The position numbers were made by a program, and so were the translations under genes. Positions 8,751-41,008 of a stretch of DNA of 64,000 nt are shown one piece after another (the stretch's first letter is position 1; each line of letters starts with the position of its first letter). This stretch comes from Clostridiales bacterium (lineage in GTDB: Bacteria > Bacillota > Clostridia > Saccharofermentanales > Saccharofermentanaceae), in contig JAFZLF010000020.1 of the NCBI GenBank assembly GCA_017551625.1, forward strand, positions 1,427-65,426. The letters are read 5' to 3'. The notes beneath the pieces were generated by a model, which ran no database searches, had not been told where the DNA came from, and saw only the letters and a program-made list of their open reading frames with translations.

Positions 8751-11525
8751 ATGTCAGATGCCAAAAGATTACTTCTTGTAGATGGAAACAGTATCATCAA
8801 CCGTTCCTACTATGCGACAGCGGGACGGAATAATCTGACGGCACCGGACGGCACACCGACAGGCGCGGTCAATATCTATCTCAATACTCTCGCTAAGTAC
8901 ATGGAAGAGGTCGACCCGACCCATACCTGTACACTCTTTGATTTGAAGGCTCCGACTTTCCGCCATCAGGCGTACGCCGAGTATAAGGGCACGCGTAAGG
9001 GCATGCCCGAGGATCTCGCGGCCCAGATGCCTGTTCTGAAAGAAGTCCTCGACGCGATGGGTTTCCCCAGATACGAGCAGGCCGGGCTTGAAGCCGACGA
9101 CCTGATCGGTACTCTCAAGACGATGGGTGTCAACGCCGGATTCGAGGTCTATATCTTAAGCGGGGATAAGGATGACTTCCAGCTCATCGATGAGCATACG
9201 AAAATCATCATGCCGGTCACGAAGAAGGACGGATCCGGCACGGAGTACTACGATGAAGCGCTTTTCCAGGAGAGATACGGCATCCCGTCGAGAGATTTTG
9301 TCACGGCAAAAGCACTGATGGGCGACAGTTCCGATAACATCCCGGGGGTCAAAGGAATCGGTGAGAAAGGTGCGATGGATCTCGTCAGAAAATACATCAC
9401 TCTCGATGGTCTGTACGAGCATCTCGATGAATTGAGCCCGAAACTCCGTGAGAAACTGGAGACGGATAAAGAGAATGCCTACATGTCCCTGATGCTGAGT
9501 AAGATCGTCACGGACGCCGAGATCTCCATCACGCTTGATGAACTGGAAAGAAAACCGATCGATTCCGCTTCGGCGGCCGCATGTTTCTATAAGTACGGTT
9601 TCCGGAGTCAGATGAAGAAGTGGAACATCGATGAAACTGCGGTCGGGGGAGCCGTACCGGTGGTGGAAGAGTCTGCAGAAGAGAAAAACTATCCGAAACT
9701 CTCCGGCCAAAGACCGATGATCATACTGGATCAGGACGTACTGCGTGCGATCAATGAGATCCTTCCGAAGATCAAGGATACTGATCCGGTCGCCATCGAT
9801 ATGAAAGAAATCAAAGGAAAGCCGGTATTGGGACTTTCTGTTGCGCCTGATCAGGTCTATGTCTGGACGGGTATTCCGGATATCAGAGATGTACTTGGAA
9901 GTCTCGTCGGCTCAGGTGTCGGAAACAAAAGAGAGAATGCGCCGGTTCTTTACAGCGCGAAGAATCACTTCAAGCTTATCGAAGACGGTTTTCCTTTCGA
10001 TATGGTCTTCGATGTCGAGATTGCAGGCTATGTATTAAACCATATCGAGGGCACGGATCCGTCGTTTGAGATGCTGGTCGAACACAGCAGCCGTAAGCCT
10101 TTCCCGATTCTTCCCGGATACGGGGAAGTAAAAGAAGAAGGTAAGAGCAAGGGCCGCCAGCAGGATCTCTTCGCGCTGATCGACGGCATATCCGAGACAG
10201 AACAGCCCCTGACGGAAGAAGATGTGCTCGACTTTTCGTACCGGGTCCTGCTTATCCGCTGGATCTCATACTACCAGAAAGAAGAGATCGATAAGACCTC
10301 TATCGGCAAACTGATCTATGAGATCGAGATGCCGCTAGTACGCGTACTGGACCGTATGGAGAGACGGGGCGTGCTTGTAGATGTGGCGCAGATAGACGAG
10401 CTGCACCGGGAATTTGATGCGAAGGTAAGAGAACTCGAATCCGAGATATATTCCATGGCTGAAGAGGAATTTACGATTCTTTCCCCGAAACAACTGGGCA
10501 AGATCCTCTTCGAGAAACTCGGACTTCCTTCCGGCAAGAAACTCGCAAGCGGCGGGTATTCGACCAACTCCGAGGAACTCGAGAAGATCCGTGACAAGCA
10601 TCCTATCGTCGATAAGATCCTCGAATACCGTCAGATCCAGAAACTCGATTCCACTTTTGTGATGGGCCTCAAAAAGAGCATCTCCGAGAAGGACGGACGT
10701 GTACACACGACATTCAGCCAGGCCATGACGAATACGGGCCGGCTGTCATCCTCGGATCCGAATCTCCAGAATATTCCGATCCGGACGGATCTCGGCTCTC
10801 TTATCCGGAAGACCTTCGTGGCGAAAGAAGGCTATGTCCTGATCGACGCGGACTACTCCCAGATCGAACTGCGTCTCCTGGCCGCGATTTCCCATGACGA
10901 AGAAATGATCTCTTCATTCCTCGAGGGAAAAGATATCCATACTAAGACGGCCTGCGGCATCTTCGGGCTTCCGCCTGAGATGATCGATCCCGGTATGCGC
11001 GCTGCTGCCAAGCGCGTCAACTTCAGTATCGTATACGGAGTCAGCGACTACGGCCTGTCACAGGATCTCGGTGTCAGTATCTATGAGGCGCACCGCTACA
11101 TCGAAGAATACTATCGCCAGTTCCCGACGATCAAGGCATGCCTCGAGGGCTTTAAGAAGGAAGGACACGAGAAGGGCTATGTCAGTACACTCTTCGGAAG
11201 AAGAAGGATCCTTAAGGAACTGACATCGGCGAACTACAATATCCGTAGTTTCGGTGAACGTGCCGCGATGAATACGCCGATCCAGGGAACAGCGGCAGAT
11301 ATCATCAAGCTGGCGATGAATCATGTCGAAACCGCGCTTTCCGAAGCGGGACTCGATGCCCATCTGATCCTGCAGGTCCACGACGAACTGATCGTCGAGG
11401 CCAGAGAAGACATCGCGAAGCAGGCGGCGAAGATATTGCAGGATACGATGGAGAATGTAGTGAAACTGGATGTGCCGCTCCTGGCCGAGGCAAGTATCGG
11501 CCGGACATGGGCAGAAGCACACTGA
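8751..11525 (+). CDS. polA: DNA polymerase I
   Basis: 924 aa. It has an N-terminal 5'-nuclease domain (LLLVDGNSIINRSYYA, GIGEKGA) and family-A polymerase motifs (DYSQIELRLLA, QVHDELIVE). Confidence 0.97.
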   Translation: MSDAKRLLLVDGNSIINRSYYATAGRNNLTAPDGTPTGAVNIYLNTLAKYMEEVDPTHTCTLFDLKAPTFRHQAYAEYKGTRKGMPEDLAAQMPVLKEVLDAMGFPRYEQAGLEADDLIGTLKTMGVNAGFEVYILSGDKDDFQLIDEHTKIIMPVTKKDGSGTEYYDEALFQERYGIPSRDFVTAKALMGDSSDNIPGVKGIGEKGAMDLVRKYITLDGLYEHLDELSPKLREKLETDKENAYMSLMLSKIVTDAEISITLDELERKPIDSASAAACFYKYGFRSQMKKWNIDETAVGGAVPVVEESAEEKNYPKLSGQRPMIILDQDVLRAINEILPKIKDTDPVAIDMKEIKGKPVLGLSVAPDQVYVWTGIPDIRDVLGSLVGSGVGNKRENAPVLYSAKNHFKLIEDGFPFDMVFDVEIAGYVLNHIEGTDPSFEMLVEHSSRKPFPILPGYGEVKEEGKSKGRQQDLFALIDGISETEQPLTEEDVLDFSYRVLLIRWISYYQKEEIDKTSIGKLIYEIEMPLVRVLDRMERRGVLVDVAQIDELHREFDAKVRELESEIYSMAEEEFTILSPKQLGKILFEKLGLPSGKKLASGGYSTNSEELEKIRDKHPIVDKILEYRQIQKLDSTFVMGLKKSISEKDGRVHTTFSQAMTNTGRLSSSDPNLQNIPIRTDLGSLIRKTFVAKEGYVLIDADYSQIELRLLAAISHDEEMISSFLEGKDIHTKTACGIFGLPPEMIDPGMRAAAKRVNFSIVYGVSDYGLSQDLGVSIYEAHRYIEEYYRQFPTIKACLEGFKKEGHEKGYVSTLFGRRRILKELTSANYNIRSFGERAAMNTPIQGTAADIIKLAMNHVETALSEAGLDAHLILQVHDELIVEAREDIAKQAAKILQDTMENVVKLDVPLLAEASIGRTWAEAH

Positions 11526-12500: not shown

Positions 12501-14402
12501 ATGGGATTTGGTGGTCCGGGACCGATGAGGATGGGACCGAGAGGTTTTCTCACGGAAGAAGAAAAGAAGAATAAGCCGAAGGTCGATAAGAAGCTCCTGA
12601 AGCGTATCGCCTCCTACATGAAGCCGTACCGGCTGCAGTTCGCGATGGTCATCTTCTCGATCCTCCTTTCTGCCGTAGTCGGACTTTTTCCGTCGATCAT
12701 CACCGGAAGAATCGTGGACAAGGCTCTCCTCGGCGACGACATGGGACTTCTGATCAAGCTCCTGATTGCGGCATTTATCGCACTGACGGCTTCGCAGGTC
12801 ATCAGTGTTGTCGAGAGCTACATCAATGCATGGATCTCCCAGCGCATCATCTTCGACATGAAAAACGAGATGTATAGGCATCTGCAGTGGATGCCGCACA
12901 GTTTCTTTACGACGGAGAAACAGGGTGACATCATTACCCGCATGAATACCGATATTTCGGGAGTCAGCTCCGTCATATCCAATACTTTATCGAGCTGCGT
13001 GAATAATGTTGCGACGGTCGTAACGACACTGGTCGCACTCTTTATGATGAGTGTGCCGCTCGCTTTTGTCGGTATCCTGATCATCCCGCTTCTGATCCTG
13101 CCGACCAGAAATGTCGGAAGAAACCGGTATAAACTCCTGACGAAGACACAGGAGAAGAATGATGAACTCAATCAGGTCATCAACGAGACACTGTCCGTAT
13201 CAGGATCCATGCTCGTCAAGCTCTTTACCCGAGAGGACAAAGAATATGAGAATTTTGTCGAGGTCAACGAGCAGGTGACGAAGCTCTCTCTTAAGGAACA
13301 ACGAAGCGGTAAGTGGTTCCGAGTCATGATGGGTATGTTTACCCAGGTCGGTCCGCTCCTCATCTACTTCGCAGGTGGTGTCTGTCTCATCAAGAAATAC
13401 GATCCGAACCTGTCAGTCGGTGTCGTCACGGCGACTGTTGCCCTCATTAACCGGCTCTACCGCCCGGTTGAGTCCCTCATGAATCTGGGTGTCGATTTCA
13501 CGAGATCTCTCGCTCTTTTCACCCGTATCTTCGACTATTTTGACCGAGAGAACCCGTTGAAATCTCCGGAAAACGGCAAGAAACCGGACGTGGCGAATAA
13601 GGATATCGTCTATGATCATGTGAAGTTCTCCTATACACCGGAAAAAGAACTGCTCACGGATGTTTCCTTTACCGTTCCGGGTGGTAAGATGTATGCGATC
13701 GTCGGTCCTTCCGGCTCGGGTAAGTCCACAGTCGTCAACTTCATCCCGCGCCTCTACGATGTCCTCGAGGGCAGTGTAAAGATTGCTGGCGTGGATGTAA
13801 GGGATTTCGATCTTACTTACCTGCGGCAGCAGATCGGTGTCGTCACGCAGGATACCTATCTCTTTAACGGTACCATCAAGGAGAATCTTCTCTATGCGAA
13901 GGACGATGCGACAGATGAAGAGATCGAGAAAGCCTGTAAGATAGCCAGCATACACGAATTCATAAGTAAGCAGCCGGAAGGGTATGATACGATGGTCGGA
14001 AACCGCGGACTGAAACTGTCGGGAGGTGAGAAGCAGCGTATCAGTATCGCTCGGGTTATCCTCAAAGACCCGAAGATCCTGATCCTCGATGAGGCCACAA
14101 GTGCGCTCGATTCTATCTCCGAGAACGCGATTTCCGAGGCTCTTGAATTGCTGATGCAGAACAGAACTTCCATCGTCATCGCGCATAGATTATCGACGAT
14201 CATGAAGGCGGAGAAGATCGTCGTGATTGCTGACGGACATGTCGCCGAGCTCGGCACCCATCAGGAACTTCTCGAGAAGAACGGTATTTACAGAGATCTG
14301 TACGAGACACAGTTCCGTCAGGTCCTCGATATGCAGGAATTGGAGAAGAAAGAAGAACCGGAGTGGGAAGGCAAGAATATGACGCAGAATGACGTCTATT
14401 AA
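12501..14402 (+). CDS. ABC exporter, fused permease/ATPase (MsbA/multidrug-type half transporter)
   Basis: 633 aa. It has a six-TM N-terminal half, Walker A GPSGSGKST, signature LSGGEKQR and Walker B ILILDEATSALD. The RBS is GGGGAGG. Confidence 0.9.
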   Translation: MGFGGPGPMRMGPRGFLTEEEKKNKPKVDKKLLKRIASYMKPYRLQFAMVIFSILLSAVVGLFPSIITGRIVDKALLGDDMGLLIKLLIAAFIALTASQVISVVESYINAWISQRIIFDMKNEMYRHLQWMPHSFFTTEKQGDIITRMNTDISGVSSVISNTLSSCVNNVATVVTTLVALFMMSVPLAFVGILIIPLLILPTRNVGRNRYKLLTKTQEKNDELNQVINETLSVSGSMLVKLFTREDKEYENFVEVNEQVTKLSLKEQRSGKWFRVMMGMFTQVGPLLIYFAGGVCLIKKYDPNLSVGVVTATVALINRLYRPVESLMNLGVDFTRSLALFTRIFDYFDRENPLKSPENGKKPDVANKDIVYDHVKFSYTPEKELLTDVSFTVPGGKMYAIVGPSGSGKSTVVNFIPRLYDVLEGSVKIAGVDVRDFDLTYLRQQIGVVTQDTYLFNGTIKENLLYAKDDATDEEIEKACKIASIHEFISKQPEGYDTMVGNRGLKLSGGEKQRISIARVILKDPKILILDEATSALDSISENAISEALELLMQNRTSIVIAHRLSTIMKAEKIVVIADGHVAELGTHQELLEKNGIYRDLYETQFRQVLDMQELEKKEEPEWEGKNMTQNDVY

Positions 14403-20719: not shown

Positions 20720-22051
20720 ATGTCCAAACCGGAAATCATAGTCATCGGTGCCGGTCTGGCCGGCTCGGAGGCAGCGTATCAGGCGTCGAGACTGGGCGTT
20801 GGTGTCCGTCTCTTCGAGATGAAGAAGAAAAGGAAAAGTCCTGCGCATCACAGCGATGGCTTTGCCGAACTTGTCTGTAGTAATTCCTTGCGTTCCAATC
20901 AGCTCGAGAACGGTGTCGGCCTTCTCAAAGAAGAGCTCCGCATCCTCGGTTCTCTTATCATGGAGTCCGCAGACAGAAGTGCCGTGCCTGCCGGTGGTGC
21001 GCTTGCTGTAGACCGAGAAGAATTCTCTTCGTATATCACGGATAAGATCGTAAATGACCCGAATATCGAAGTTATTCACGATGAAGTCCATAAGATCCCG
21101 GATGACGCGATCGTAGTGATAGCGACCGGACCGCTCACGGATGGGGATCTTTATGACGATATCATGGAGAGGATCGGACATCAGGATATGCATTTCTTTG
21201 ATGCAGCTGCGCCGATCGTTCTGAAGTCCAGTATCGATCTTTCGATCTGTTTCGCTATGTCCCGCTATGGAAAAGGCGGAAACGATTATCTGAACTGTCC
21301 CATGAATGAGGAAGAATACCGCCGATTCTATGAGGCGCTCGTTTCGGCCGAACTTGCGGATGTAAAGGATTTTGACAAGGAGACGGTCTTCGAAGGCTGC
21401 ATGCCGATCGAGACGATGGCGAAGCGTGGATATGACACGATGCGTTTCGGTCCGCTCAAGCCTGTCGGTCTGATCGATCCGAGAACCGGTGAAGAGCCGT
21501 ATGCCTGCGTGCAGCTCCGCCAGGATGACCGCATGGCTTCGATCTATAATATCGTAGGTTTTCAGACGAGACTTCGTTTCCCGGAACAGCAGCGTGTCTT
21601 CCGCATGATTCCCGGCCTTGAAAATGCCGAGTTTACCCGCTTTGGAGTCATGCATCGGAATACGTATATTGAATCGCCGCGTCTTCTTGATTCCTCCTAT
21701 CGGATGAGAGATTATCCGAATGTGTTCTTTGGAGGACAGATCACGGGGGTCGAGGGGTATATCGAGTCCACGGCATCAGGTTATATCGCCGGATATTACG
21801 CTGCTCTTCAGGCGCTTTCGCAGGAAAGCCCTGTGACATTCTCCGCAAACACGATGATTGGAGCGATGGCTCAGTATTGCTCCGATCCCGTGGTGAAGAA
21901 TTTCGTGCCGATGAATGCCAACTTCGGACTCATTGCTCCGCTCGGATACCGGGTGAAGGGGAAAAAGAAAGAAAAGTACCTGGCTTATGCGGAGCGCGCG
22001 CTTGCTGAAGTGCGGGAAAACAAAGAAAAAATGGAGAGTCTGTGGAAATGA
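20720..22051 (+). CDS. trmFO: Methylenetetrahydrofolate--tRNA-(uracil54-C5)-methyltransferase TrmFO
   Basis: MSKPEIIVIGAGLAGSEAA FAD-binding fold in conserved topA-trmFO synteny. I chose the ATG at 20720 rather than ORF-track 20570, which lies inside topA. Confidence 0.95.
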   Translation: MSKPEIIVIGAGLAGSEAAYQASRLGVGVRLFEMKKKRKSPAHHSDGFAELVCSNSLRSNQLENGVGLLKEELRILGSLIMESADRSAVPAGGALAVDREEFSSYITDKIVNDPNIEVIHDEVHKIPDDAIVVIATGPLTDGDLYDDIMERIGHQDMHFFDAAAPIVLKSSIDLSICFAMSRYGKGGNDYLNCPMNEEEYRRFYEALVSAELADVKDFDKETVFEGCMPIETMAKRGYDTMRFGPLKPVGLIDPRTGEEPYACVQLRQDDRMASIYNIVGFQTRLRFPEQQRVFRMIPGLENAEFTRFGVMHRNTYIESPRLLDSSYRMRDYPNVFFGGQITGVEGYIESTASGYIAGYYAALQALSQESPVTFSANTMIGAMAQYCSDPVVKNFVPMNANFGLIAPLGYRVKGKKKEKYLAYAERALAEVRENKEKMESLWK

Positions 22052-22917
22052 CGCAAAGACCTTTTGATGCCTCGCAGTGGGAAGAAACCGGTAAAATCAA
22101 GGGATTCTGGCGCTCTTATGCGCGTGATTGGGGGAAAGTATGTGGATGCAATGCACTCCTAATGGGGGTGAACATGCTCTCGTTCGTGATCGGTATCTGT
22201 CTGGTCATGTTCCTGCTTCCATTGATCTTTACCTCATTTACCCCGGCCGGCCTTAAGGATTTTATACTCGAGACGGAAATGGTCGAGGCGACCAGTGTCA
22301 CAGATGAAGCAGTAGAGAATATTTTCTATACTTTATGCATGCTCAGTTCTTTTTTTATGATTGGGATGCTTTTGGTCGTTAACGGACCTTTCTATTCCGC
22401 GGTCAGTTTCTATTTCCGTAATCTGATCACGGGAGAAGGTGACTTCCGAGTTGACTTCAAGAAAGGTCTGAAAGAAAACTGGAAGAAGTCTCTGGCCGCA
22501 TCTATACTGTCGATCGTGGTGACTGTTGTGATCCTTTTCAATATCGGGTACTACCAGCGAGCAGAGATGGGTACGCTCTCGCTCGCGGCGAAATCTTTCT
22601 TTACGGTGCTTCTGTCGTTCTGGTGCTGGATACAGCTTTTCGTGTATCCGCTGATCGCCTGTGTCGAGCTCTCTTTCAAAGAAGTGTACCGTAATGCCGT
22701 GATCATGTCCGTCAAGAATTTCCCGGTCGTGATCGGCGTTTTCTTCCTGCAGATCATACTCTTCGGCGTCATCCCATATGGATTGATGTTTTCTTTCGGA
22801 ACGATCGGGTATGCGATCACCATGCTTCTTTATATGATTTTTTCATTCGGCTTTCTCAGTTATGTGGCGATGTATATCACATGGAAAGCCATACAGAAGA
22901 TCATCCAGTCACAGTGA
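22042..22917 (+). CDS. Integral membrane protein, DUF624/YesL-like
   Basis: 291 aa, about six TM helices, with a short soluble N-terminus containing FW..Y motifs. It overlaps the trmFO end by 10 nt. Confidence 0.5.
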   Translation: MEMTQRPFDASQWEETGKIKGFWRSYARDWGKVCGCNALLMGVNMLSFVIGICLVMFLLPLIFTSFTPAGLKDFILETEMVEATSVTDEAVENIFYTLCMLSSFFMIGMLLVVNGPFYSAVSFYFRNLITGEGDFRVDFKKGLKENWKKSLAASILSIVVTVVILFNIGYYQRAEMGTLSLAAKSFFTVLLSFWCWIQLFVYPLIACVELSFKEVYRNAVIMSVKNFPVVIGVFFLQIILFGVIPYGLMFSFGTIGYAITMLLYMIFSFGFLSYVAMYITWKAIQKIIQSQ

Positions 22918-23067: not shown

Positions 23068-24747
23068 ATGATTCAGTGTGTACGTGGTCATTTCTTTGAT
23101 GAGAATCGATATGCAGACTGCCCTTATTGCAGTCAGGCGTCCAGCAAACCGAGAGCGGTCACGCCGCCTGTTGCCCCAAATATGGAGATCCCGAAACCGT
23201 CGTGCGGTAAAACGGTCGCGGTTGAGGGCGTCGCAACAGAACCGGCCGTTAGTAAGACGGTAGCAATCGAGAATTTCGAGGAGACTCTTCCTCCGGTAAA
23301 TAAGACAGTAGCTATCAGTGAGCAGCCCTCGGCTTATACCCCGGGCCCGTCTCCGGATGGACTTCCGAGCATGGCTCCGGCCGCAGTTCCGGTTCCGGCT
23401 CCTGCTCCGGTGCCTCCGATGGCCGCGCCTGTAGCTCAGGAAGTGCCGGCTGTACCGGTGGCTGCGCCTGTTGCTCCTATAGAAACTCCTGTTGTACCCG
23501 TTGAGTTCCAGCCGGCTCCGATGGCAGCGCCCGTAGCTCCGATGGATGCTCCGGTTGCACCTGTTGCGCCTGTTGTGCAAGCCCCGGACGCACCCGTTGC
23601 TCCGGTAGTTCCTGCCGCCCCGGTGGAACGTCCGATCCCATCTTATACAGCAGATCTGCGGGCTGAAATTCCTTTTGACGGTGTGTCGGATACTCCGGAA
23701 AGAGTTCTGACAGAAGAGATTTCCGTAGATATTCCTGTCACGGGTCTGGGTGTTTCCGATCATCCGACACCGCTTGCTTCGGAAGAGAATTACTATCATT
23801 CCAATCCGGATAGACCCTATGCCGTTACCGGATTAGGTGTAAAAGAAAACCCGACTCCGATCCCGAATGATACGGGCGCGACGTTCCCGATCCCAGGTGG
23901 AGAAGGCCAGAGTGTCCCGGCTGGGCAGCCCGCATCTGCGGAAGCCGCAGCGTTTGCTGCGTTTGGATTCCCGGGTGGACCGATGCCCGGAATGATGCCG
24001 GGTGGACCGATGCCCGGAGCTCCGATGCCGGGTGCGCCTGTTCCACCGCCGGCTCCGATCGCATCGCCTGTTGATGCCACCCCGGCCCCGATAGCAGAAC
24101 CGGCCCCGATCGTGGAAGAAACTCCGGTCGAGCCGATTCCCGAACCGGCCCCGATGGCGGAGGCCGTAACTCCGGCTGCCCCGATACCGGAACCTGCCCC
24201 GATGGCGGAGGTCGTAGCTCCGGCTGCTCCGATGCCGGAACCGGCTCCGATCGTGGAGGAGGCTCCCGCGGCTCAGGCTGCTGAGATTCCTGCTGCTCCG
24301 GTGGCCGAAGCACCTGTGGCGCCTGTTCCCGGACCGATGTTTGTGGATACAAAACCGAGAGATCCGAATGCTACTGTCGCGATGACCGAGTCCGATATGG
24401 ACTATATGCCGCGTGTACATGCCAGAGCTTTTCTGGTGTGCGTAGACGGCCCTATGACCGGCGCGAGCTTCGTGTTCCAGGAGAACCGGGCTATCGTCGG
24501 ACGTCAGAAGAACTATGAGATAGCGCTTTTCCGTGATAATTCCGTATCGAGAAGTCCGCATGCGATTATTGCTTACGACAAGGATGCAGTGCGTTATACG
24601 GTTGCCCAGGGTGATCCGGAGAAGAAGGTGTCCGTCAACGGTACCTTTATCAATGCGGAACAGGAACTCAAACTGTACGATATCATCGGTATCGGACAGA
24701 CGAGGATGCTCTTTATTCCGGTATGCAGTGAGAAGTTTGCATGGTAA
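23068..24747 (+). CDS. Zinc-ribbon / Pro-Ala-rich linker / C-terminal FHA-domain protein
   Basis: 559 aa. The N-terminus is MIQCVRGHFFDENRYADCPYC (C-x3-H-x9-C-x2-C). About 400 aa of P/A/V-rich low complexity follow. The C-terminal FHA carries the GR...SRSPH...NG signature (IVGRQ, SRSPHA, VNGT). Confidence 0.85.
   Translation: MIQCVRGHFFDENRYADCPYCSQASSKPRAVTPPVAPNMEIPKPSCGKTVAVEGVATEPAVSKTVAIENFEETLPPVNKTVAISEQPSAYTPGPSPDGLPSMAPAAVPVPAPAPVPPMAAPVAQEVPAVPVAAPVAPIETPVVPVEFQPAPMAAPVAPMDAPVAPVAPVVQAPDAPVAPVVPAAPVERPIPSYTADLRAEIPFDGVSDTPERVLTEEISVDIPVTGLGVSDHPTPLASEENYYHSNPDRPYAVTGLGVKENPTPIPNDTGATFPIPGGEGQSVPAGQPASAEAAAFAAFGFPGGPMPGMMPGGPMPGAPMPGAPVPPPAPIASPVDATPAPIAEPAPIVEETPVEPIPEPAPMAEAVTPAAPIPEPAPMAEVVAPAAPMPEPAPIVEEAPAAQAAEIPAAPVAEAPVAPVPGPMFVDTKPRDPNATVAMTESDMDYMPRVHARAFLVCVDGPMTGASFVFQENRAIVGRQKNYEIALFRDNSVSRSPHAIIAYDKDAVRYTVAQGDPEKKVSVNGTFINAEQELKLYDIIGIGQTRMLFIPVCSEKFAW
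24091..24267 (+). repeat. In-frame tandem repeat (about 3.5 copies of a 45-48-nt unit) inside the FHA-protein gene
   Basis: The 24136-24183 and 24184-24231 units encode IPEPAPMAE(A/V)V(T/A)PAAP. More diverged copies flank them (IAEPAPIVEETPVEP, MPEPAPIVEEAP). Confidence 0.85.
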
Positions 24748-25685
24748 TTGATTGGAACACAATTAAGGATACGTTTCTTAAGTATGTGAGCGGCATGCGC
24801 TGGATCTTCCTCGGATGTGCAGGTGCGATCCTCCTGATCGTGGTGGTCGTGCTTATCCTTCGGAGTATGAAGAAAAAGAAAGTCGAACCTTCGGGAAAAA
24901 CGGAAGAAACGAAGCCTATCCATAAGAGCATGGTCATGGATAATGGCCGATTCCGTATAGAGATCGGAAATGTTCAGGGAACCGGTGACAGAGAAGAACA
25001 GCAGGATGCTTTTGCCTTCTCGCCGACGGCAAAATGGAAGGAGAAGGGATTCCTCGCAGTGCTCTGTGATGGGATGGGCGGTCTCGACGCAGGTGCAGCG
25101 ATCTCTAATAAGCTCGTGTCCGATATTATCGCCGAGTTTCCGTATTCTTTCGAAGAACTCAAGGATGGCTGGATCCTCGATTCTCTTTCCAATGAGATCT
25201 ATGAGAACTACCGAGGCCGTGGCGGCACGACGGTGATCATCACATATCTGAAGGACGATAAGATGTGGTTCGCCTCTGTGGGAGACAGTGATCTTCTGCT
25301 TTTGCGAGACGGCCGTATCTATGCCATGAATGTGCGTCAGGAGTATGGAAATACACTTTTGAATAGAGCTCTTGACGGCGCGGTATCGGTCGAGCAGGCC
25401 CTGACGCATCGGGATGCGCCTGCGCTTACGGAATTTATGGGCGCTCAGCACGCTAATCCTGACTATTCGATCGTACCGTGGGATGTCAAGGATAAGGATG
25501 TGTATCTGTTGTGCTCGGACGGAATCAGTGATACCCTTTCCTTCGAGGAGATCCGTGAAGCGATGAAGCATGATCCTTCAGAGTGTGCCGAGATCCTCGA
25601 GAAGGGGATCATGACGAAAAATAAACGTTATCAGGATAACTACACAGCTATCATTTTCGCTGTGCATGAAATAGGAGGTAATTAG
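24741..25685 (+). CDS. Membrane-anchored PP2C-family Ser/Thr phosphatase
   Basis: 314 aa. One N-terminal TM helix (WIFLGCAGAILLIVVVVLIL) is followed by PP2C motifs EEQQDAF, LCDGMGG, GGTTVI, ASVGDSDLLL, LLCSDGISD and DNYTAIIF. It overlaps the upstream gene by 7 nt. Confidence 0.88.
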   Translation: MVIDWNTIKDTFLKYVSGMRWIFLGCAGAILLIVVVVLILRSMKKKKVEPSGKTEETKPIHKSMVMDNGRFRIEIGNVQGTGDREEQQDAFAFSPTAKWKEKGFLAVLCDGMGGLDAGAAISNKLVSDIIAEFPYSFEELKDGWILDSLSNEIYENYRGRGGTTVIITYLKDDKMWFASVGDSDLLLLRDGRIYAMNVRQEYGNTLLNRALDGAVSVEQALTHRDAPALTEFMGAQHANPDYSIVPWDVKDKDVYLLCSDGISDTLSFEEIREAMKHDPSECAEILEKGIMTKNKRYQDNYTAIIFAVHEIGGN

Positions 25686-25686
25686 T

Positions 25687-27120
25687 ATGAAGTGGGTAAG
25701 AAGAATCTTTATGTTCCTCTTGATTCTTGCAATTGGCGGTTCCGGCTTTATGGCTTTCCGCAATTTCAAGCCCTGGCGTGATGCACAGGAGGAACTGGAT
25801 GAGGTCAAGAGTGAGACATTCCAGGCCAAGGATGTGAAGAGAAGCTTCACTCCTCAGGAGAATCAGCACTCTGTCGCATTTGTTTTCTGTCAGAACGGCA
25901 GTTCGTGGGCGGCAGGTTCCTGCTACGCAGTCGGAGATCCGGATGGAAAAGTCCAGTACTTCGTAACAAACGGACATGTTGTCGAGCCATTCATGGAAGA
26001 AGGCTATTCTATCACGATCTATTTTGATGATCTGGAAAACATCGTTCCTGAGGTCATTTTCTATGAGTTTGATGAGAATCTGGATATGGCTATCCTGAAG
26101 CTCCCCGAGCCGGTCGACATGAGAACGGCCCTGATCATCCGTGATTCTGCCGAGGTAGAGACTGGTGAAAAGTGTACAGCGATCGGTTATCCGGATAAGG
26201 CGATGGAGTTTGACGGAAACTTTATTGGCGATATGGCCGGTCAGACAGTCTCCAGCGGCGTTATCTCCAAGGTAGACTTTGTTCCGAGTGCTGTCGGTGT
26301 GGCGTACCACACATTCCAGCATGACACATTTACCTCTCATGGTAACTCCGGCGGACCGCTCCTCGACGGAAACGGCTTCCTCATCGGTATGAATACCCTG
26401 GGCAATCCGGAATCGGAGAGCGTAAACTATGCGATCACTTCTGCAGAGATCATGCAGAGACTCGATGAGAATAATGTTGACTATGTGACCAGTAAGGAAT
26501 ATCTCGGTGCCATCGACAAGTCTATCGCAGCCGATCAGAAGAAGTTTGACAAGAAGCATGACGCAGCTGTCGAGGAAGCGGAAACGGAAGTTACCGAGAC
26601 AAGGAATAAGTTCCTGCTCTTCTGCGCGATCGCAGCGGCCTGCGCTATCGTTCTCCTGATCCTCTTCATCGTCGGCAACAAGAAGGTCGTTATGGTCGGT
26701 GAACAGGATGATGGAAAGAAGTCTTTCGTGTACTGCACGAAGGGTGTATTTGCGGGACAGAAATTTGAGGTGACCGGTCAGACGATGACGATCGGCCGTG
26801 ACCAGAACTCCTGTACGATCGTATTCCCTGAACAGACTCCTGGTATCAGCTCGAACCACTGCTCGATCTACTTCGATGCGAGAACCAAGGCGTTCGTCCT
26901 TACGGATAACGGTTCCACATACGGCACATATCTCAGTGATGGCAGAAAGCTGACGAAGGGCGTTCCGGAGAAACTTCTCCCGGGTTCCACTTTTGCTCTG
27001 GCCGATAAGGCAAACGAGTTCCTCGTAGACAGAGAAGAGGGCGACGGTAAGAAGAAAGAAAAGAAAGAAAAGAAGTCTAAGAAAGCTGCGGAGATTCCGA
27101 CAGATACTTCGATTCAATAA
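25687..27120 (+). CDS. Bitopic trypsin-like (S1/S1C) serine protease fused to a cytoplasmic FHA domain
   Basis: 477 aa. The order is TM1 (aa ~7-24), a protease domain with candidate triad His97 (TNGHVV), Asp133 (DMAILKL) and Ser221 (GNSGGPLLD), TM2 (FLLFCAIAAACAIVLLILFIVG), then an FHA domain (TIGRD, SSNHC, DNGSTYGT) and a K/E-rich tail. Confidence 0.85.
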   Translation: MKWVRRIFMFLLILAIGGSGFMAFRNFKPWRDAQEELDEVKSETFQAKDVKRSFTPQENQHSVAFVFCQNGSSWAAGSCYAVGDPDGKVQYFVTNGHVVEPFMEEGYSITIYFDDLENIVPEVIFYEFDENLDMAILKLPEPVDMRTALIIRDSAEVETGEKCTAIGYPDKAMEFDGNFIGDMAGQTVSSGVISKVDFVPSAVGVAYHTFQHDTFTSHGNSGGPLLDGNGFLIGMNTLGNPESESVNYAITSAEIMQRLDENNVDYVTSKEYLGAIDKSIAADQKKFDKKHDAAVEEAETEVTETRNKFLLFCAIAAACAIVLLILFIVGNKKVVMVGEQDDGKKSFVYCTKGVFAGQKFEVTGQTMTIGRDQNSCTIVFPEQTPGISSNHCSIYFDARTKAFVLTDNGSTYGTYLSDGRKLTKGVPEKLLPGSTFALADKANEFLVDREEGDGKKKEKKEKKSKKAAEIPTDTSIQ

Positions 27121-27138: not shown

Positions 27139-27846
27139 ATGGATCACTATTCATACACCAATGTGGGTGGCCACGAGCCGAACTGCGACTACGCGCAGGT
27201 CATCGAACATGACGACCAGGTCCTGATCGTTCTGTGCGATGGGCTGAATGGCCTTCCCAGCGGTGATCAGGCATCAAAGATCATATCAGACGCAGCGATG
27301 GAGGCTTTCCTTCAAGGAAAGTCTCCTGCTGACGCCTGTATCTTCGCCAATGAGAAATTCCGCGGGATGCAGTTCGATAATGTCGATCTTCGACGCGCGG
27401 GGGCGACGATCTGTGCGGTAAGGATCGCGGACGGTAAGTGCTCCTGGGCCAATGTGGGTGATTCACATATCTACCATTTTTCAAAAGGCAAACTCATGCA
27501 CCACTCCGTCGATGATACGCCGACCTATAAGGCCTATTCCCGCGGTGATTTCGATTATGAGGGGATCCGCGAGCAGGATGACCGGACCGGAATGACTGTC
27601 TGTATAGGACAGAAGGAAACGGTCGAGCCTCATGTGGAATCCTTCAATATGGAGGAAGGCGATGCGATCCTGGTCTGTTCGGATGGCCTGTGGGAATATG
27701 TGTATGAGACGGAGATGCTTATCGATCTTCACAAATCCTTCAATTCTAAAGAATGGGCGGAGAAGATGCTCCTTCGGGCGACACAGAGGAGTCACCTCAA
27801 GGGAGACAATATGACTTTAGTAACTTATTTCAGGCTGGCAGGTTAA
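27139..27846 (+). CDS. Soluble PP2C-family Ser/Thr phosphatase (second copy)
   Basis: 235 aa with no TM helix. Motifs are LCDGLNG, GATICAV, ANVGDSHIY, LVCSDGLWEY and GDNMTLV. Confidence 0.85.
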   Translation: MDHYSYTNVGGHEPNCDYAQVIEHDDQVLIVLCDGLNGLPSGDQASKIISDAAMEAFLQGKSPADACIFANEKFRGMQFDNVDLRRAGATICAVRIADGKCSWANVGDSHIYHFSKGKLMHHSVDDTPTYKAYSRGDFDYEGIREQDDRTGMTVCIGQKETVEPHVESFNMEEGDAILVCSDGLWEYVYETEMLIDLHKSFNSKEWAEKMLLRATQRSHLKGDNMTLVTYFRLAG

Positions 27847-27850
27847 CGAC

Positions 27851-30235
27851 ATGGACACGAATAATCTCTGTTTCGGATGTTTTAGAGAACACAATAATGT
27901 TGGTCCGTGTCCGCACTGCGGGTATGACCTGGCGACGGCCAAGCATCCTTTCGTAGCGCTTCCTATCGGTACGATCCTTAACGGCCGTTATCTGACTGGC
28001 CGTGTCCTTGGTGTGGGTGGCTTTGGCGTAACGTATCTGGCTTTTGATATGACGCTGGAGATCGCCGTGGCGGTCAAGGAGTTCCTGCCTTCTGGCATCG
28101 CGCTTCGTGAGTCAGACCGCTACACCATGACGGTCAGCTCACCGGAAGAACAGCCGAAATTTGATACCGGTGCGACGAAGTTCCTCGATGAGGCCAGACT
28201 TCTCGCCAAACTCCGTGATGTGCCGAACATCGTGACGGTTCAGGACTATTTCCGTGAGAACAACACAGCCTACTTCGTCATGGAGTATATCGAGGGCGTC
28301 GACCTCATGAAGTATGCGCAGAATAAGGGCGGAACGCTCTCCTATAACGAGGCGCTGTACCTGATCCTGCCTGTTATCGATTCTCTGGCACATGTGCACG
28401 CGCACAATCTCCTTCACAGAGATATCAGCCCGGACAATATTGTCGTCATGAAGAATGGCTCGACGAGACTTCTTGACTTCGGCGCAGCGCGTGTGGCAAT
28501 CGATACCGAGAAGAGTAAGTCCATCATCCTCAAGCATGGTTTCGCGCCGGAAGAACAGTACAGGAAACACGGCAATCAGGGGCCTTGGTCCGATGAGTAC
28601 GCACTGGCCGCTACGATGTATCTGATCATCACTGGTGTGATGCCGCCGGATGCGATCGAGCGTGTGCACGAAGATACGCTGGTCTCCCCGAAGGATCTCG
28701 GCGTGGATATCCCGGATTATGCGAATGACGCCCTGATGAAAGCACTGTCCGTCCATGCTTCCGGACGCTTCCCGGATATGGCTTCTTTCTCTGTTGCGTT
28801 GACGGGCAATCAACCGGTCGGATCTTCTGTTTCCTATGCCCCATCTATGACTGTGTCATCGCAGGATGCGTTCCCATCCGGTGTGGTTTCCGGGCAGGAC
28901 GGTCCGATGGTCGAGGGAAAGACTGTCGGTATGGAGCAGGACCAGATATCACAACCGTATGCGCCGCAGAAGATGATCTCGCCGTCGATTCTTGCTGGAG
29001 AGAACGGAAAATCGGATGCGGAAGAGAAATCGGAAGTAGAAAAGCCGAAGACGAAAAAGAAGAAAAGTATATGGAAGAGACCGGTCACTTATATCCTGAT
29101 GGGTATAGTGGCATTGGCTATCGCGGCATTCCCAATCGGAAACTATATCACGGAAAACTACGAGTGGGGGCCGACTACGACCACTGCGAAGAAAACCTCG
29201 AAAAAAACGTCCAAGGAGACGTCTAAGCCTACGACACCTCCTTCTGAAACGATCCCGGATCCACAGATAGAGGAAAATGGAGATAGTATCACCTATAACG
29301 ACACGGTCCGTACGTTCTCCCTTTCTGCTCCGGCGAAGTATTCCTTTACAAATAAGGATGGCCTTTTCACGCTGGTCCGGGACGATCAGGCGACGTCGAT
29401 CTACATCAATGCGGTCAAGAGTGTCGGTGATTACCGTGTAGAAACGTTAAATGATATGATCGCGCAGAGCGAAGATGTCATCAAAACGTATCTGCTGAAC
29501 ACACTCGGATTGTCTGAGGTAGAGGTCAACGATGACTATCTCTACATAACTACGCTCGGTGTCGGTTCGACTACGCTGGAATTTGATGTTTCTGCGTCTT
29601 CGGATACAGGAAAGGTGAATGTGACTTTCCTGGCTGTCGAGAGAAAAGCCGATACAGGAGTTTTCCTCCTCTGCGGTATCATGCCGATCGATGATTACCG
29701 TATGTATTCCGGAGATGACTGGGAAGATATTAAGAACGTGCTCATGACTTTTGTCGAGAATTCGGATGTCCCGTCTTCGTACTCCTATTATTACGGTGAC
29801 AACATGCCGGACTTCCTCTATAACAGTAATTTTGTAAGCGAAGTCGAGGAAGTGACGATCGGGAATAATCTGGATTGTCTGGATCTGCATCTTGTCAATC
29901 TGGAAGATAAAGAATGTAAGGTCCAGGTCGTCAATCTCGGTGAGCAGGACTCGATCACCAATGCATGTACCGCAGCCGAGCAGGTCCTCGGAGCGAATTA
30001 TAAGTTCGGTGGGTATACTTCTGTCACGCCTACAGTCCGTAAAAGCTATGAGATGCGAATCCGGAATTATACACTGACAAAGATCTATGATGAGGATGTC
30101 ATCGTGGAGTGTACAGTCTGCGTCATCAACATGAACGGGACGTACTATGCGGTCATCGCTACTTGTGATGATGATGCGGTGCTTGAAAGAGTCACGCTCG
30201 ACTTTACTATGGTCGTGAGAACACTGACAGACTGA
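27851..30235 (+). CDS. Hanks-type Ser/Thr protein kinase with an N-terminal zinc ribbon, one TM helix and a ~370-aa unrecognised extracellular domain
   Basis: 794 aa. It has CFGC-x11-CPHC, the Gly loop GVGGFGVTY, AVKEF (catalytic Lys), HRDISPDNIVV, DFGAAR and APEE. The TM helix is YILMGIVALAIAAFPIGNYI. A Thr/Ser/Lys-rich stalk precedes an ectodomain with no PASTA repeats. Confidence 0.9.
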   Translation: MDTNNLCFGCFREHNNVGPCPHCGYDLATAKHPFVALPIGTILNGRYLTGRVLGVGGFGVTYLAFDMTLEIAVAVKEFLPSGIALRESDRYTMTVSSPEEQPKFDTGATKFLDEARLLAKLRDVPNIVTVQDYFRENNTAYFVMEYIEGVDLMKYAQNKGGTLSYNEALYLILPVIDSLAHVHAHNLLHRDISPDNIVVMKNGSTRLLDFGAARVAIDTEKSKSIILKHGFAPEEQYRKHGNQGPWSDEYALAATMYLIITGVMPPDAIERVHEDTLVSPKDLGVDIPDYANDALMKALSVHASGRFPDMASFSVALTGNQPVGSSVSYAPSMTVSSQDAFPSGVVSGQDGPMVEGKTVGMEQDQISQPYAPQKMISPSILAGENGKSDAEEKSEVEKPKTKKKKSIWKRPVTYILMGIVALAIAAFPIGNYITENYEWGPTTTTAKKTSKKTSKETSKPTTPPSETIPDPQIEENGDSITYNDTVRTFSLSAPAKYSFTNKDGLFTLVRDDQATSIYINAVKSVGDYRVETLNDMIAQSEDVIKTYLLNTLGLSEVEVNDDYLYITTLGVGSTTLEFDVSASSDTGKVNVTFLAVERKADTGVFLLCGIMPIDDYRMYSGDDWEDIKNVLMTFVENSDVPSSYSYYYGDNMPDFLYNSNFVSEVEEVTIGNNLDCLDLHLVNLEDKECKVQVVNLGEQDSITNACTAAEQVLGANYKFGGYTSVTPTVRKSYEMRIRNYTLTKIYDEDVIVECTVCVINMNGTYYAVIATCDDDAVLERVTLDFTMVVRTLTD

Positions 30236-38249: not shown

Positions 38250-38600
38250 TGAGCTGGACCGGATGATCGCGGGCACAGGTGCCGAAAGGCCGTGCGTGAG
38301 GAAAGTCCGGGCTCCATAGGACAAGGGTGCCGGGCAGTTCCCGGTGAAGGTAACTTTAAGGAAAGTGCAACAGAAAAGAAGACCGCCGTTTCCTTCGGGA
38401 TTCGGTAAGGATGAAAAGGCGAGGTAAGAGCTCACCGGCGGTACGGTAACGTACCGGCCTTGTAAACCCCACCCGGAGCAACGCCATGGAAAGACATTAC
38501 TGTGGTCCGCAGGTCTTGAGGAGGCGGCTTGAGCCGGAACGAAATTTCCGGTCTAGATAGATGATCATCTTCTACAGAACCCGGCTTACAGGTTCAACTT
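38250..38600 (+). ncRNA. rnpB: RNase P RNA, bacterial type A
   Basis: Universal blocks are present: GAGGAAAGTCCGGGCTCCATAGG, AGTGCAACAGAAA, GGTAAGAGCTCACCGG and ACAGAACCCGGCTTA. P1 can form between 38251-38260 (GAGCTGGACC) and 38591-38600 (GGTTCAACTT). A TATAAT lies at 38232-38237. Ends are approximate (about +/-5 nt). Confidence 0.93.
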
Positions 38601-38695
38601 AGAAGACTTTTTCTCGCTCGAGCCATGTATTCATGACGGGCAGAATAGAGATAAAAACCTCGCATCGAGGACGATAGAAAGAGAGGACATGTTTC

Positions 38696-40932: not shown

Positions 40933-41008
40933 GTACCTTTAGCTCAGTTGGTAGAGCAACTGACTCTTAATCAGTGGGCCCAGGGTTCGAGTCCCTGAAG
41001 GTGCACCA
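40933..41008 (+). tRNA. tRNA-Lys (anticodon CTT), CCA encoded
   Basis: I folded the 76-nt cloverleaf by hand. The acceptor stem is GTACCTT/AAGGTGC, the D arm GCTC-AGTTGGTA-GAGC, the anticodon stem ACTGA/TCAGT with loop CTCTTAA, and the T arm CAGGG-TTCGAGT-CCCTG, ending ACCA. Confidence 0.93.

Follow-up and report, generated by a model that had tools for sequence, protein, structure and literature searches.

Background

Bacterial Hanks-type serine/threonine kinases act on cytoplasmic targets, and how their signals reach the cell surface is, to our knowledge, mostly unknown. Forkhead-associated (FHA) domains read the phosphothreonine (pThr) made by ATP-dependent kinases, a reaction of the cytoplasm, and HtrA-type proteases act outside the cytoplasm. 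We report here on a gene of a Clostridiales bacterium whose product is predicted to hold one domain of each kind, the protease outside the membrane and the FHA domain inside. The gene is read from the forward strand of a 64,000-nucleotide stretch of contig JAFZLF010000020.1, which we call the window and whose numbering is used throughout, and lies in an operon with genes for a receptor kinase, two PP2C phosphatases and an FHA scaffold. Its product, the protease-FHA protein, is best described as two halves, a DegS-like, membrane-anchored HtrA-type protease domain and an FhaB/FipA-like cytoplasmic FHA domain that follows a return transmembrane (TM) helix.

The protease half resembles the DegS/HtrA proteases (S1C) in its chymotrypsin fold and in a catalytic triad set in TNxHV, D(I/L/M)A(I/V)LK and GNSGG(P/A)L contexts, and it shares with DegS an N-terminal membrane anchor and a protease placed outside. 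Unlike DegS and HtrA, it has no PDZ domain, continues beyond the protease into a TM helix and a cytoplasmic FHA domain, and scores far under the curated HtrA/DegP/DegS cut-offs. Since the FHA domain replaces the PDZ domain, the regulatory or targeting module would lie across the membrane and would read pThr rather than C-terminal peptides. MarP (Rv3671c) of Mycobacterium tuberculosis is likewise a membrane-held S1 protease ectodomain, one that processes an envelope enzyme, and has weak family similarity to the protein studied here. MarP differs in its four-TM N-terminal anchor and in having neither an FHA domain nor a return TM helix; the protease-FHA protein, with a single hydrophobic segment before the protease, falls outside the MarP family (45.6 bits against a cut-off of 250 in NCBIfam).

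The C-terminal half, a TM helix, a linker and a cytoplasmic FHA domain encoded together with a kinase and a PP2C phosphatase, has its closest counterpart in FhaB/FipA (Rv0019c). FhaB lacks an ectodomain, whereas the protease-FHA protein carries one of about 280 aa, a protease, and scores below the cut-off of the FhaB model. In M. tuberculosis, fhaB belongs to the operon fhaA-fhaB-pstP-rodA-pbpA-pknA-pknB. The clostridial operon is similar in combining an FhaA-like protein, a membrane PP2C, a membrane FHA protein and a receptor kinase; it differs in lacking rodA and pbpA, in a kinase ectodomain that is not of the PASTA type and in a lineage that is not actinobacterial.

Three reports describe FHA domains in related company. 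Rv1747 is an FHA-bearing membrane effector encoded in a kinase operon and is reported to be positively regulated by Ser/Thr phosphorylation (PMC3138270). It resembles the present protein as an FHA domain fused to a membrane effector under the control of its operon's Ser/Thr kinase (PknF); the effector is an ABC transporter rather than a protease, and its FHA domains are N-terminal. Zhang et al. (2012) predicted, by computation only, that fusions of PrsW to FHA domains are "signaling peptidases" (PMC3482391). These join a membrane-associated protease to an intracellular, phosphopeptide-binding FHA domain, as here, although PrsW is an intramembrane/site-1 metalloprotease and not a serine protease ectodomain of soluble fold. 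Finally, an FHA-FHA-Trypsin protein of Bacteroides thetaiotaomicron, NP_811686.1, was listed as uncharacterised in a 2008 survey (PMC2605481), the only earlier record we came across of a bacterial protein that combines FHA and trypsin domains. In that protein, which belongs to another phylum, the domain order is reversed, two FHA domains standing at the N-terminus, and homology and HMMER searches for relatives of the protease-FHA protein did not recover it.

Results

Domain order of the protease-FHA protein

The gene (25687..27120, + strand, as are all features of the operon given below) encodes 477 aa. Its ATG is preceded by a GGAGG ribosome-binding site and begins 2 bases past the stop codon of the upstream gene. 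A Kyte-Doolittle scan found exactly two hydrophobic segments, at aa ~7-25 and ~309-331. The AlphaFold2 (AF2) model, built on 87 homologues and with a mean predicted local distance difference test (pLDDT) score of 92.3, consists in order of a helix, the protease domain, a long helix, a linker, an FHA beta-sandwich and a low-confidence tail. Within the first of these elements, a continuous helix over aa 2-42, the TM1/signal-anchor segment (aa 7-25; 25705..25761) follows the basic sequence MKWVRR and leads into a short extracellular extension; hydropathy, charge, homologues and the model all point to it. The long helix (aa 269-330; 26491..26679), delimited by the model, hydropathy and homologues, runs from an extracellular stalk (aa 269-308), which is specific to the near clade, that is, the window's own, into TM2, a very hydrophobic segment between the two domains (hydropathy peak 3.2).

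An earlier note, made from the sequence alone, had proposed the order N-terminal anchor, protease, TM helix and FHA domain, and Pfam, hydropathy, AF2 and homologues bear this out. The Trypsin_2 and FHA assignments, their motifs and the TM segments are not chance matches.

An HtrA-type protease without a PDZ domain

The protease domain (aa 56-261; 25852..26469) is assigned to the HtrA type (PA clan, S1) from Pfam, PDB and Foldseek comparisons. Pfam Trypsin_2 (PF13365) matches aa 84-235 with an E-value of 1.1e-19 and 72.1 bits against a cut-off of 27.6. A sequence search of the PDB returned HtrA, DegP, DegQ and DegS, and the top Foldseek matches of the domain in the PDB were DegQ, DegP, plant Deg1, DegS and human HTRA1 (E-values of 1e-15 to 1e-13), with target TM-scores of up to 0.79 for protease-only chains. 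The triad proposed in the earlier note lines up with the catalytic residues of M. tuberculosis HtrA1, so that its S1 type holds: His97 in TNGHV (25975..25977) aligns with TN[AN]HV of the HtrA1 chains, Asp133 in DMAILK (26083..26085) with DLAVLK, and Ser221 in GNSGGPL (26347..26349) with GNSGGPL. In the 231-sequence family alignment in which residue conservation was counted, each of the three residues is kept in 230 sequences. The ectodomain is thus apparently, to judge by its sequence, a catalytically competent HtrA-type protease.

Pfam gave no PDZ match in the protein, and in the AF2 model the protease is followed by the helix, TM2 and the FHA domain. The curated HtrA models of NCBIfam were missed by a wide distance (degP_htrA_DO, 68.1 bits against 416.2; DegS, 33.7 against 423), and no curated NCBIfam family attains its cut-off for this protein. 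Across the family the catalytic His lies a median of 52 aa from TM1, and the catalytic Ser a median of 63 aa from TM2. The idea that these two extracellular tethers lengthen together was rejected (Spearman coefficient 0.07, not significant), the Pearson coefficient of 0.30 being driven by a few sequences. A stalk in the form of a helical hairpin would at most be peculiar to the near clade.

An FHA domain with a family-specific signature

The cytoplasmic FHA domain (aa 344-451; 26716..27039) was delimited from Pfam, the AF2 model, residue counts and an alignment to the FHA domain of SLMAP (6ar0). Pfam FHA (PF00498) matches aa 368-438 with an E-value of 2e-12 and 47.8 bits against a cut-off of 20.7, and AF2 predicts a beta-sandwich over aa 344-451 with a pLDDT of ~96. 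The best FHA match in NCBIfam is FhaB/FipA, at 30.5 bits against a cut-off of 125. Among the 231 homologues, Arg371 is kept in 228, Ser388 in 230 and His391 in all 231, and position 411 is Ser or Thr in 224.

The canonical FHA signature GR...SxxH...NGS read by the earlier note is present as regards G370/R371 and S388/H391, but the asparagine of its NGS, Asn408, is not the canonical one. In the HMMER alignment to 6ar0, the canonical Asn of S-x-N-G-T falls instead on Tyr412, within STYGT; this position holds Tyr in 207 homologues, Phe in 14 and Asn in 6, and the position of Asn408 is variable, with Leu in 131. The Tyr or Phe at the usual position of the FHA Asn is, going by the alignment, a signature of the family itself. 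The domain otherwise keeps the residues that bind pThr and is predicted to be a phosphothreonine reader. Since these residues and the protease triad are near-invariant, catalysis and phosphopeptide recognition both appear to be under selection.

The FHA domain is joined to TM2 by a disordered cytoplasmic linker (aa 331-343; 26677..26715), with a pLDDT below 50 over aa 331-340 and a length that varies in the family: the distance from TM2 to the GR motif spans 34 to 121 aa. The protein ends in the Lys/Glu-rich tail of the earlier note, which exists at aa 452-477 (27040..27117; low pLDDT) but is lineage-specific and not a family feature. Most aligned relatives lack it, the aligned sequences stopping near aa 450, and of all relatives only the nearest, with 462-463 aa, have the length for one.

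Membrane topology

The protein is predicted to be a two-pass membrane protein with the protease outside and the FHA domain inside. The basic N-terminus, TM1 and the return through TM2 proposed in the earlier note are likewise predicted here, from hydropathy, charge and the conservation of the segments. Both TM segments are present in all of the listed full-length homologues from the first homology search and in 135 of 144 more distant representatives. Family-wide, the N-terminus before TM1 carries a mean of 4.2 positive charges, and the net charge around TM2 is +1.17 after the segment and -0.18 before it, a positive-inside bias. The kinase domain and both PP2C domains of the operon are cytoplasmic by their own predicted topology.

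That the topology is reversed, with the protease in the cytoplasm and the FHA domain outside, or that the hydrophobic segments do not span the membrane, is extremely improbable. The charge bias at TM2, taken alone, is modest and leaves some room for a reversal. Against it stand the basic N-terminus followed by a hydrophobic segment, which is a classical N-in signal-anchor, and the retention of both hydrophobic segments throughout the family. An outward-facing FHA domain would moreover be parted from the ATP-dependent phosphorylation that it needs and from the cytoplasmic catalytic domains of the operon's kinase and phosphatases, and an inward-facing protease would depart from the known site of action of HtrA-type enzymes.

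Candidate docking repeats in the scaffold

The first gene of the operon encodes a 559-aa scaffold (23068..24747), recognised by Pfam and synteny, with an FhaA-like layout of a Zn-ribbon, a long Pro-rich linker and a divergent C-terminal FHA domain. The last matches both FHA and Yop-YscD_cpl of Pfam just under their cut-offs, and orthologues keep its GR, VSRxxHA and N. Between aa 47 and 83 (23206..23316) a motif count identified three KTVA[V/I] repeats, GKTVAV (Thr49), SKTVAI (Thr64) and NKTVAI (Thr80). The more general motif KT[VI][AGS] occurs 177 times in 73 scaffold orthologues, or 8.2 times per 1000 aa, compared with 0.19 per 1000 aa in background open reading frames (ORFs) of the same loci, an enrichment of about 40-fold; in the protease-FHA proteins and the PP2Cs it does not occur at all. 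Exactly three copies, the modal number, are found in 39 of 62 distinct scaffolds. Many FHA domains select an aliphatic residue at T+3, and the T+3 residue of the scaffold motif is Ile, Ala, Val or Leu. The repeats, of which we found no published description, are likely candidates, on sequence grounds, for phospho-acceptor and FHA-docking sites.

The juxtamembrane region of the partner kinase contains GKTVGM (aa 356-361; 28916-28933), the same motif as in the scaffold repeats, and some near-clade kinases have GKTVAM in this region.

A conserved five-gene operon

The protease-FHA gene is the third of five tightly packed genes on the + strand of the window. Directly upstream of it, in nearly every locus that reaches that far, is the gene for a TM-PP2C phosphatase, which in the window (24741..25685; 314 aa) has an N-terminal TM segment at aa 21-40 and a cytoplasmic PP2C domain (Pfam PP2C and PP2C_2; NCBIfam Stp1-like at 90 bits, under the cut-off). 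All of its catalytic motifs are kept in 70 orthologues. A second, soluble PP2C of 235 aa (27139..27846; Pfam, NCBIfam) follows the protease-FHA gene; it is found chiefly in the near clade, with a minority of the other loci also carrying it. The last gene (27851..30235) encodes a receptor Ser/Thr kinase of 794 aa, which Pfam Pkinase and AF2 divide into a Zn-ribbon, the kinase domain, a juxtamembrane region, a TM segment (~aa 408-433) and an ectodomain.

When ORFs were called in 83 related loci and classed with phmmer, the order scaffold-FHA, TM-PP2C, protease-FHA and one or more kinases was found in nearly all, at 28% to 82% identity. This arrangement spans three orders of Clostridia despite differences in the flanking genes. 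In place of the second PP2C, many of the distant loci encode two kinases and small DUF3592-like membrane proteins; in the distant clade (locus L001) small two-TM proteins of this kind are encoded between the protease-FHA gene and two kinase genes, at 9647-10168, 12518-13063 and 13145-13588 of that locus. They may be accessory components or substrates.

The kinase ectodomain (aa 470-794; 29261-30232) is modelled by AF2 as two alpha/beta domains with a pLDDT of ~90 and has no Pfam match. Queried by itself in a word-indexed homology search, the ectodomain gave one match, and a Foldseek search of the full-length kinase model against a viral structure library was dominated by matches to the kinase domain. 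A profile of near-clade ectodomains detected the first ~180 aa in the kinases of distant loci; because this module recurs there, the kinase partner belongs to the operon module. The juxtamembrane region (aa 321-466) is disordered in the AF2 model, and between the TM segment and the ectodomain lies a disordered stretch rich in Thr, Pro and Lys.

Kinase and scaffold both begin with a Zn-ribbon-like Cys/His motif (CFGCF...CPHCG, 27851-27930, and C..H...CPYC, 23068-23140, respectively). Its cysteines C7, C10, C20 and C23 are invariant in the kinase alignment, and the motif is found in 56 of 62 scaffolds.

In two loci from Bacillota metagenome-assembled genomes (MAGs), the gene directly downstream of the Trypsin-TM-FHA gene encodes a Zn-ribbon, a PrsW-family membrane protease and a C-terminal FHA domain (L079, 9303-10718; L077, 9338-10741). 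The two genes match PF13367 with E-values of 3e-20 and 2e-17 and FHA with 4e-11 and 1e-11. A second, unrelated membrane protease with the same cytoplasmic reader is thus present in the kinase operon at L077 and L079.

Family size and distribution

The first homology search returned 326 relatives, and both Pfam domains are present in all 120 of those listed. HMMER, run exhaustively over 1.84 billion cluster representatives, yielded at least 246 clusters at 50% identity with E-values of 1e-30 or below, a range in which the listed matches cover both halves of the protein. A scan of one genome per GTDB species gave 369 loci. The best 80 of these 369 are all from Bacillota, and each of the 80 that is named below phylum belongs to a Clostridia lineage. 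Among the listed loci, the closest relatives are rumen MAGs at 82% identity. Cultured carriers include Christensenella hongkongensis, C. tenuis, Massiliimalia massiliensis, Catenibacillus scindens and Hominifimenecus microfluidus, and the cultured carrier species that were looked up span three orders.

At NCBI the proteins of the family bear only the name "trypsin-like peptidase domain-containing protein", and full-text literature searches found no paper on a trypsin/HtrA-TM-FHA architecture or on its operon. The earlier note had called the architecture unusual. This is right in so far as the literature does not describe it, but an architecture present at 369 loci across GTDB species and in no fewer than 246 clusters is not rare; that the architecture is common refutes rarity and leaves its uncharacterised status intact. 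The family is large, occurs in gut and rumen Clostridia and is undescribed. Its parts are known and the concept of a protease-FHA fusion has been predicted for another protease, whereas this combination and its gene module are undescribed.

Surroundings of the operon

Directly upstream of the operon (22042-22917) is a gene for a multi-TM protein with weak similarity to MusI/DUF624, under the cut-offs, which is syntenic only in the near clade. The near-clade locus lies among the housekeeping genes dprA, topA, trmFO, tgt and queA. A scan of the operon for promoters and terminators found such sites no more often than in shuffled sequence, and Rfam and tRNA scans gave no match near the protease-FHA locus. 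Farther along the window are a bacterial RNase P RNA (class A, 275 bits) at 38251-38604 and a tRNA-Lys(CTT) gene at 40933-41008, an ordinary chromosomal context. Membership in a known anti-phage defence system was considered and rejected: PADLOC gave only generic, domain-level matches to trypsin, kinase and PP2C, and none for the scaffold or the TM-PP2C.

Discussion

That the gene is kept in a kinase/phosphatase operon suggests that surface proteolysis is directed by kinase signalling. The earlier note had offered two ideas, that kinase activity positions or clusters an extracellular protease and that the protease acts as a sensor relaying to the FHA side, and the former seems to fit the evidence best; strict conservation of the triad makes the latter weaker. 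We propose that the protease is recruited by the kinase, so that Thr phosphorylation within the cell would control a protease on its surface from the inside out, and consider this proposal evenly poised between right and wrong. The receptor kinase, activated through its ectodomain, would phosphorylate Thr residues in the KTV repeats of the scaffold and, in the window's clade, perhaps its own juxtamembrane GKTVGM as well. The FHA domain of the protease would dock on the resulting phosphothreonines, and docking would recruit the protease to active kinase complexes and cluster it there. Cleavage of envelope or membrane-protein substrates outside the cell would thereby be limited to where and when the kinase is on, and the PP2C phosphatases would reset the system. 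The flexible linker, with its varying length, favours such tethering and clustering over a conformational relay through the membrane.

The working form of HtrA proteases is a trimer, and for this reason a scaffold with three sites could favour assembly of the trimer required for their activity. It is a doubtful extension of the proposal that up to three pThr marks set by the receptor kinase on the scaffold template three protease-FHA chains into an active HtrA-like trimer outside the cell, with cytoplasmic Thr phosphorylation directly gating extracellular proteolysis. Gating of this kind would be an integrin-type inside-out activation in its logic, one common to the neighbouring PrsW-FHA proteins with their different protease. 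The PrsW-FHA gene that comes next at L077 and L079 is an independent parallel that strengthens the theme of kinase-directed proteases, and Rv1747 is a precedent for an FHA-bearing membrane effector in a kinase operon.

Several points weigh against kinase recruitment as drawn here. What is said here of topology, proteolytic activity, pThr recognition, phosphorylation sites and substrate is prediction throughout. TM1 might be cleaved off as a signal peptide instead of serving as an anchor, which would leave the sidedness of the domains unchanged. As Tyr or Phe replaces the canonical Asn in 221 of 231 homologues, the peptide-binding mode or specificity of the FHA domain may differ from the textbook one. 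The juxtamembrane KTV motif of the kinase is confined to part of the near clade. In 23 of 62 scaffolds, moreover, the motif is present in 0, 1, 2 or 4 copies, which makes templating of a trimer a weak idea that we hold loosely.

Among other explanations, it is possible though unlikely that the protease carries out a kinase-directed, site-1-type cleavage, with the stalk or ectodomain of the partner kinase, or an operon membrane protein such as a DUF3592-like one, as its putative main substrate. The FHA domain would then pick out the phosphorylated, active kinase, whose sensor domain would be shed as negative feedback or to convert the signal. The protease is indeed tethered near the membrane on both sides in most members, as in DegS (see the median distances above), the kinase has its disordered Thr/Pro/Lys-rich stretch between TM segment and ectodomain, its ectodomain module co-occurs with the protease across clades, and a PrsW-type site-1 protease with an FHA domain shares the operon at L077 and L079. 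Yet the window's own clade raises the protease off the membrane on a helical stalk, and loci with two kinases and variable accessory genes point to no single obligatory substrate. A signal in the opposite direction is a rather improbable reading, in which the HtrA-like domain senses unfolded or damaged envelope proteins and substrate engagement shifts its oligomeric state and hence the clustering or availability of the FHA domain, which would protect or sequester pThr sites. Stress peptides activate HtrA-family proteases, DegS being the paradigm; the modelled fold resembles those of DegS and DegP, and an FHA domain, having no enzymatic output, could serve as a competitive pThr binder. What tells against this is the loss of the PDZ domain, the sensor of DegS and HtrA, a linker too floppy and variable in length to suit a conformational signal, and a triad so strictly conserved that catalysis, and not only binding, must be selected; a dedicated receptor, the kinase with its large ectodomain, is moreover already present in the operon.

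The protein might, finally, be the membrane-anchored housekeeping HtrA of this lineage, serving envelope quality control, which the FHA domain only places at a division or secretion site, or stabilises, while playing no regulatory part in the kinase pathway, but this seems very unlikely. HtrA, DegP and DegQ are the closest matches of the protease domain, and the near-clade locus does sit among housekeeping genes. Linkage to kinase, PP2C and FHA scaffold nevertheless persists across three orders in spite of differing flanks, the pThr-binding residues are near-invariant, and the protein lacks a PDZ domain and reaches only 68 of the 416 bits set by the HtrA family model.

Conclusions

A single polypeptide appears to connect a cytoplasmic pThr reader with an extracellular protease that is apparently active, in hundreds of species of gut and rumen Clostridia. 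If the kinase does recruit or activate the protease, regulated extracellular proteolysis would be a new class of output for bacterial Ser/Thr signalling, and a conserved five-gene module that is now annotated with generic domain names only would gain a function. The KTV repeats offer concrete, mutable candidate phospho-sites, and because cultured Christensenella, Massiliimalia and Catenibacillus carry the family, the idea is directly testable. The putative hard-wired link between cytoplasmic phosphorylation and extracellular proteolysis is worth testing by specialists in Ser/Thr signalling, for whom the cultured carriers make such work feasible.

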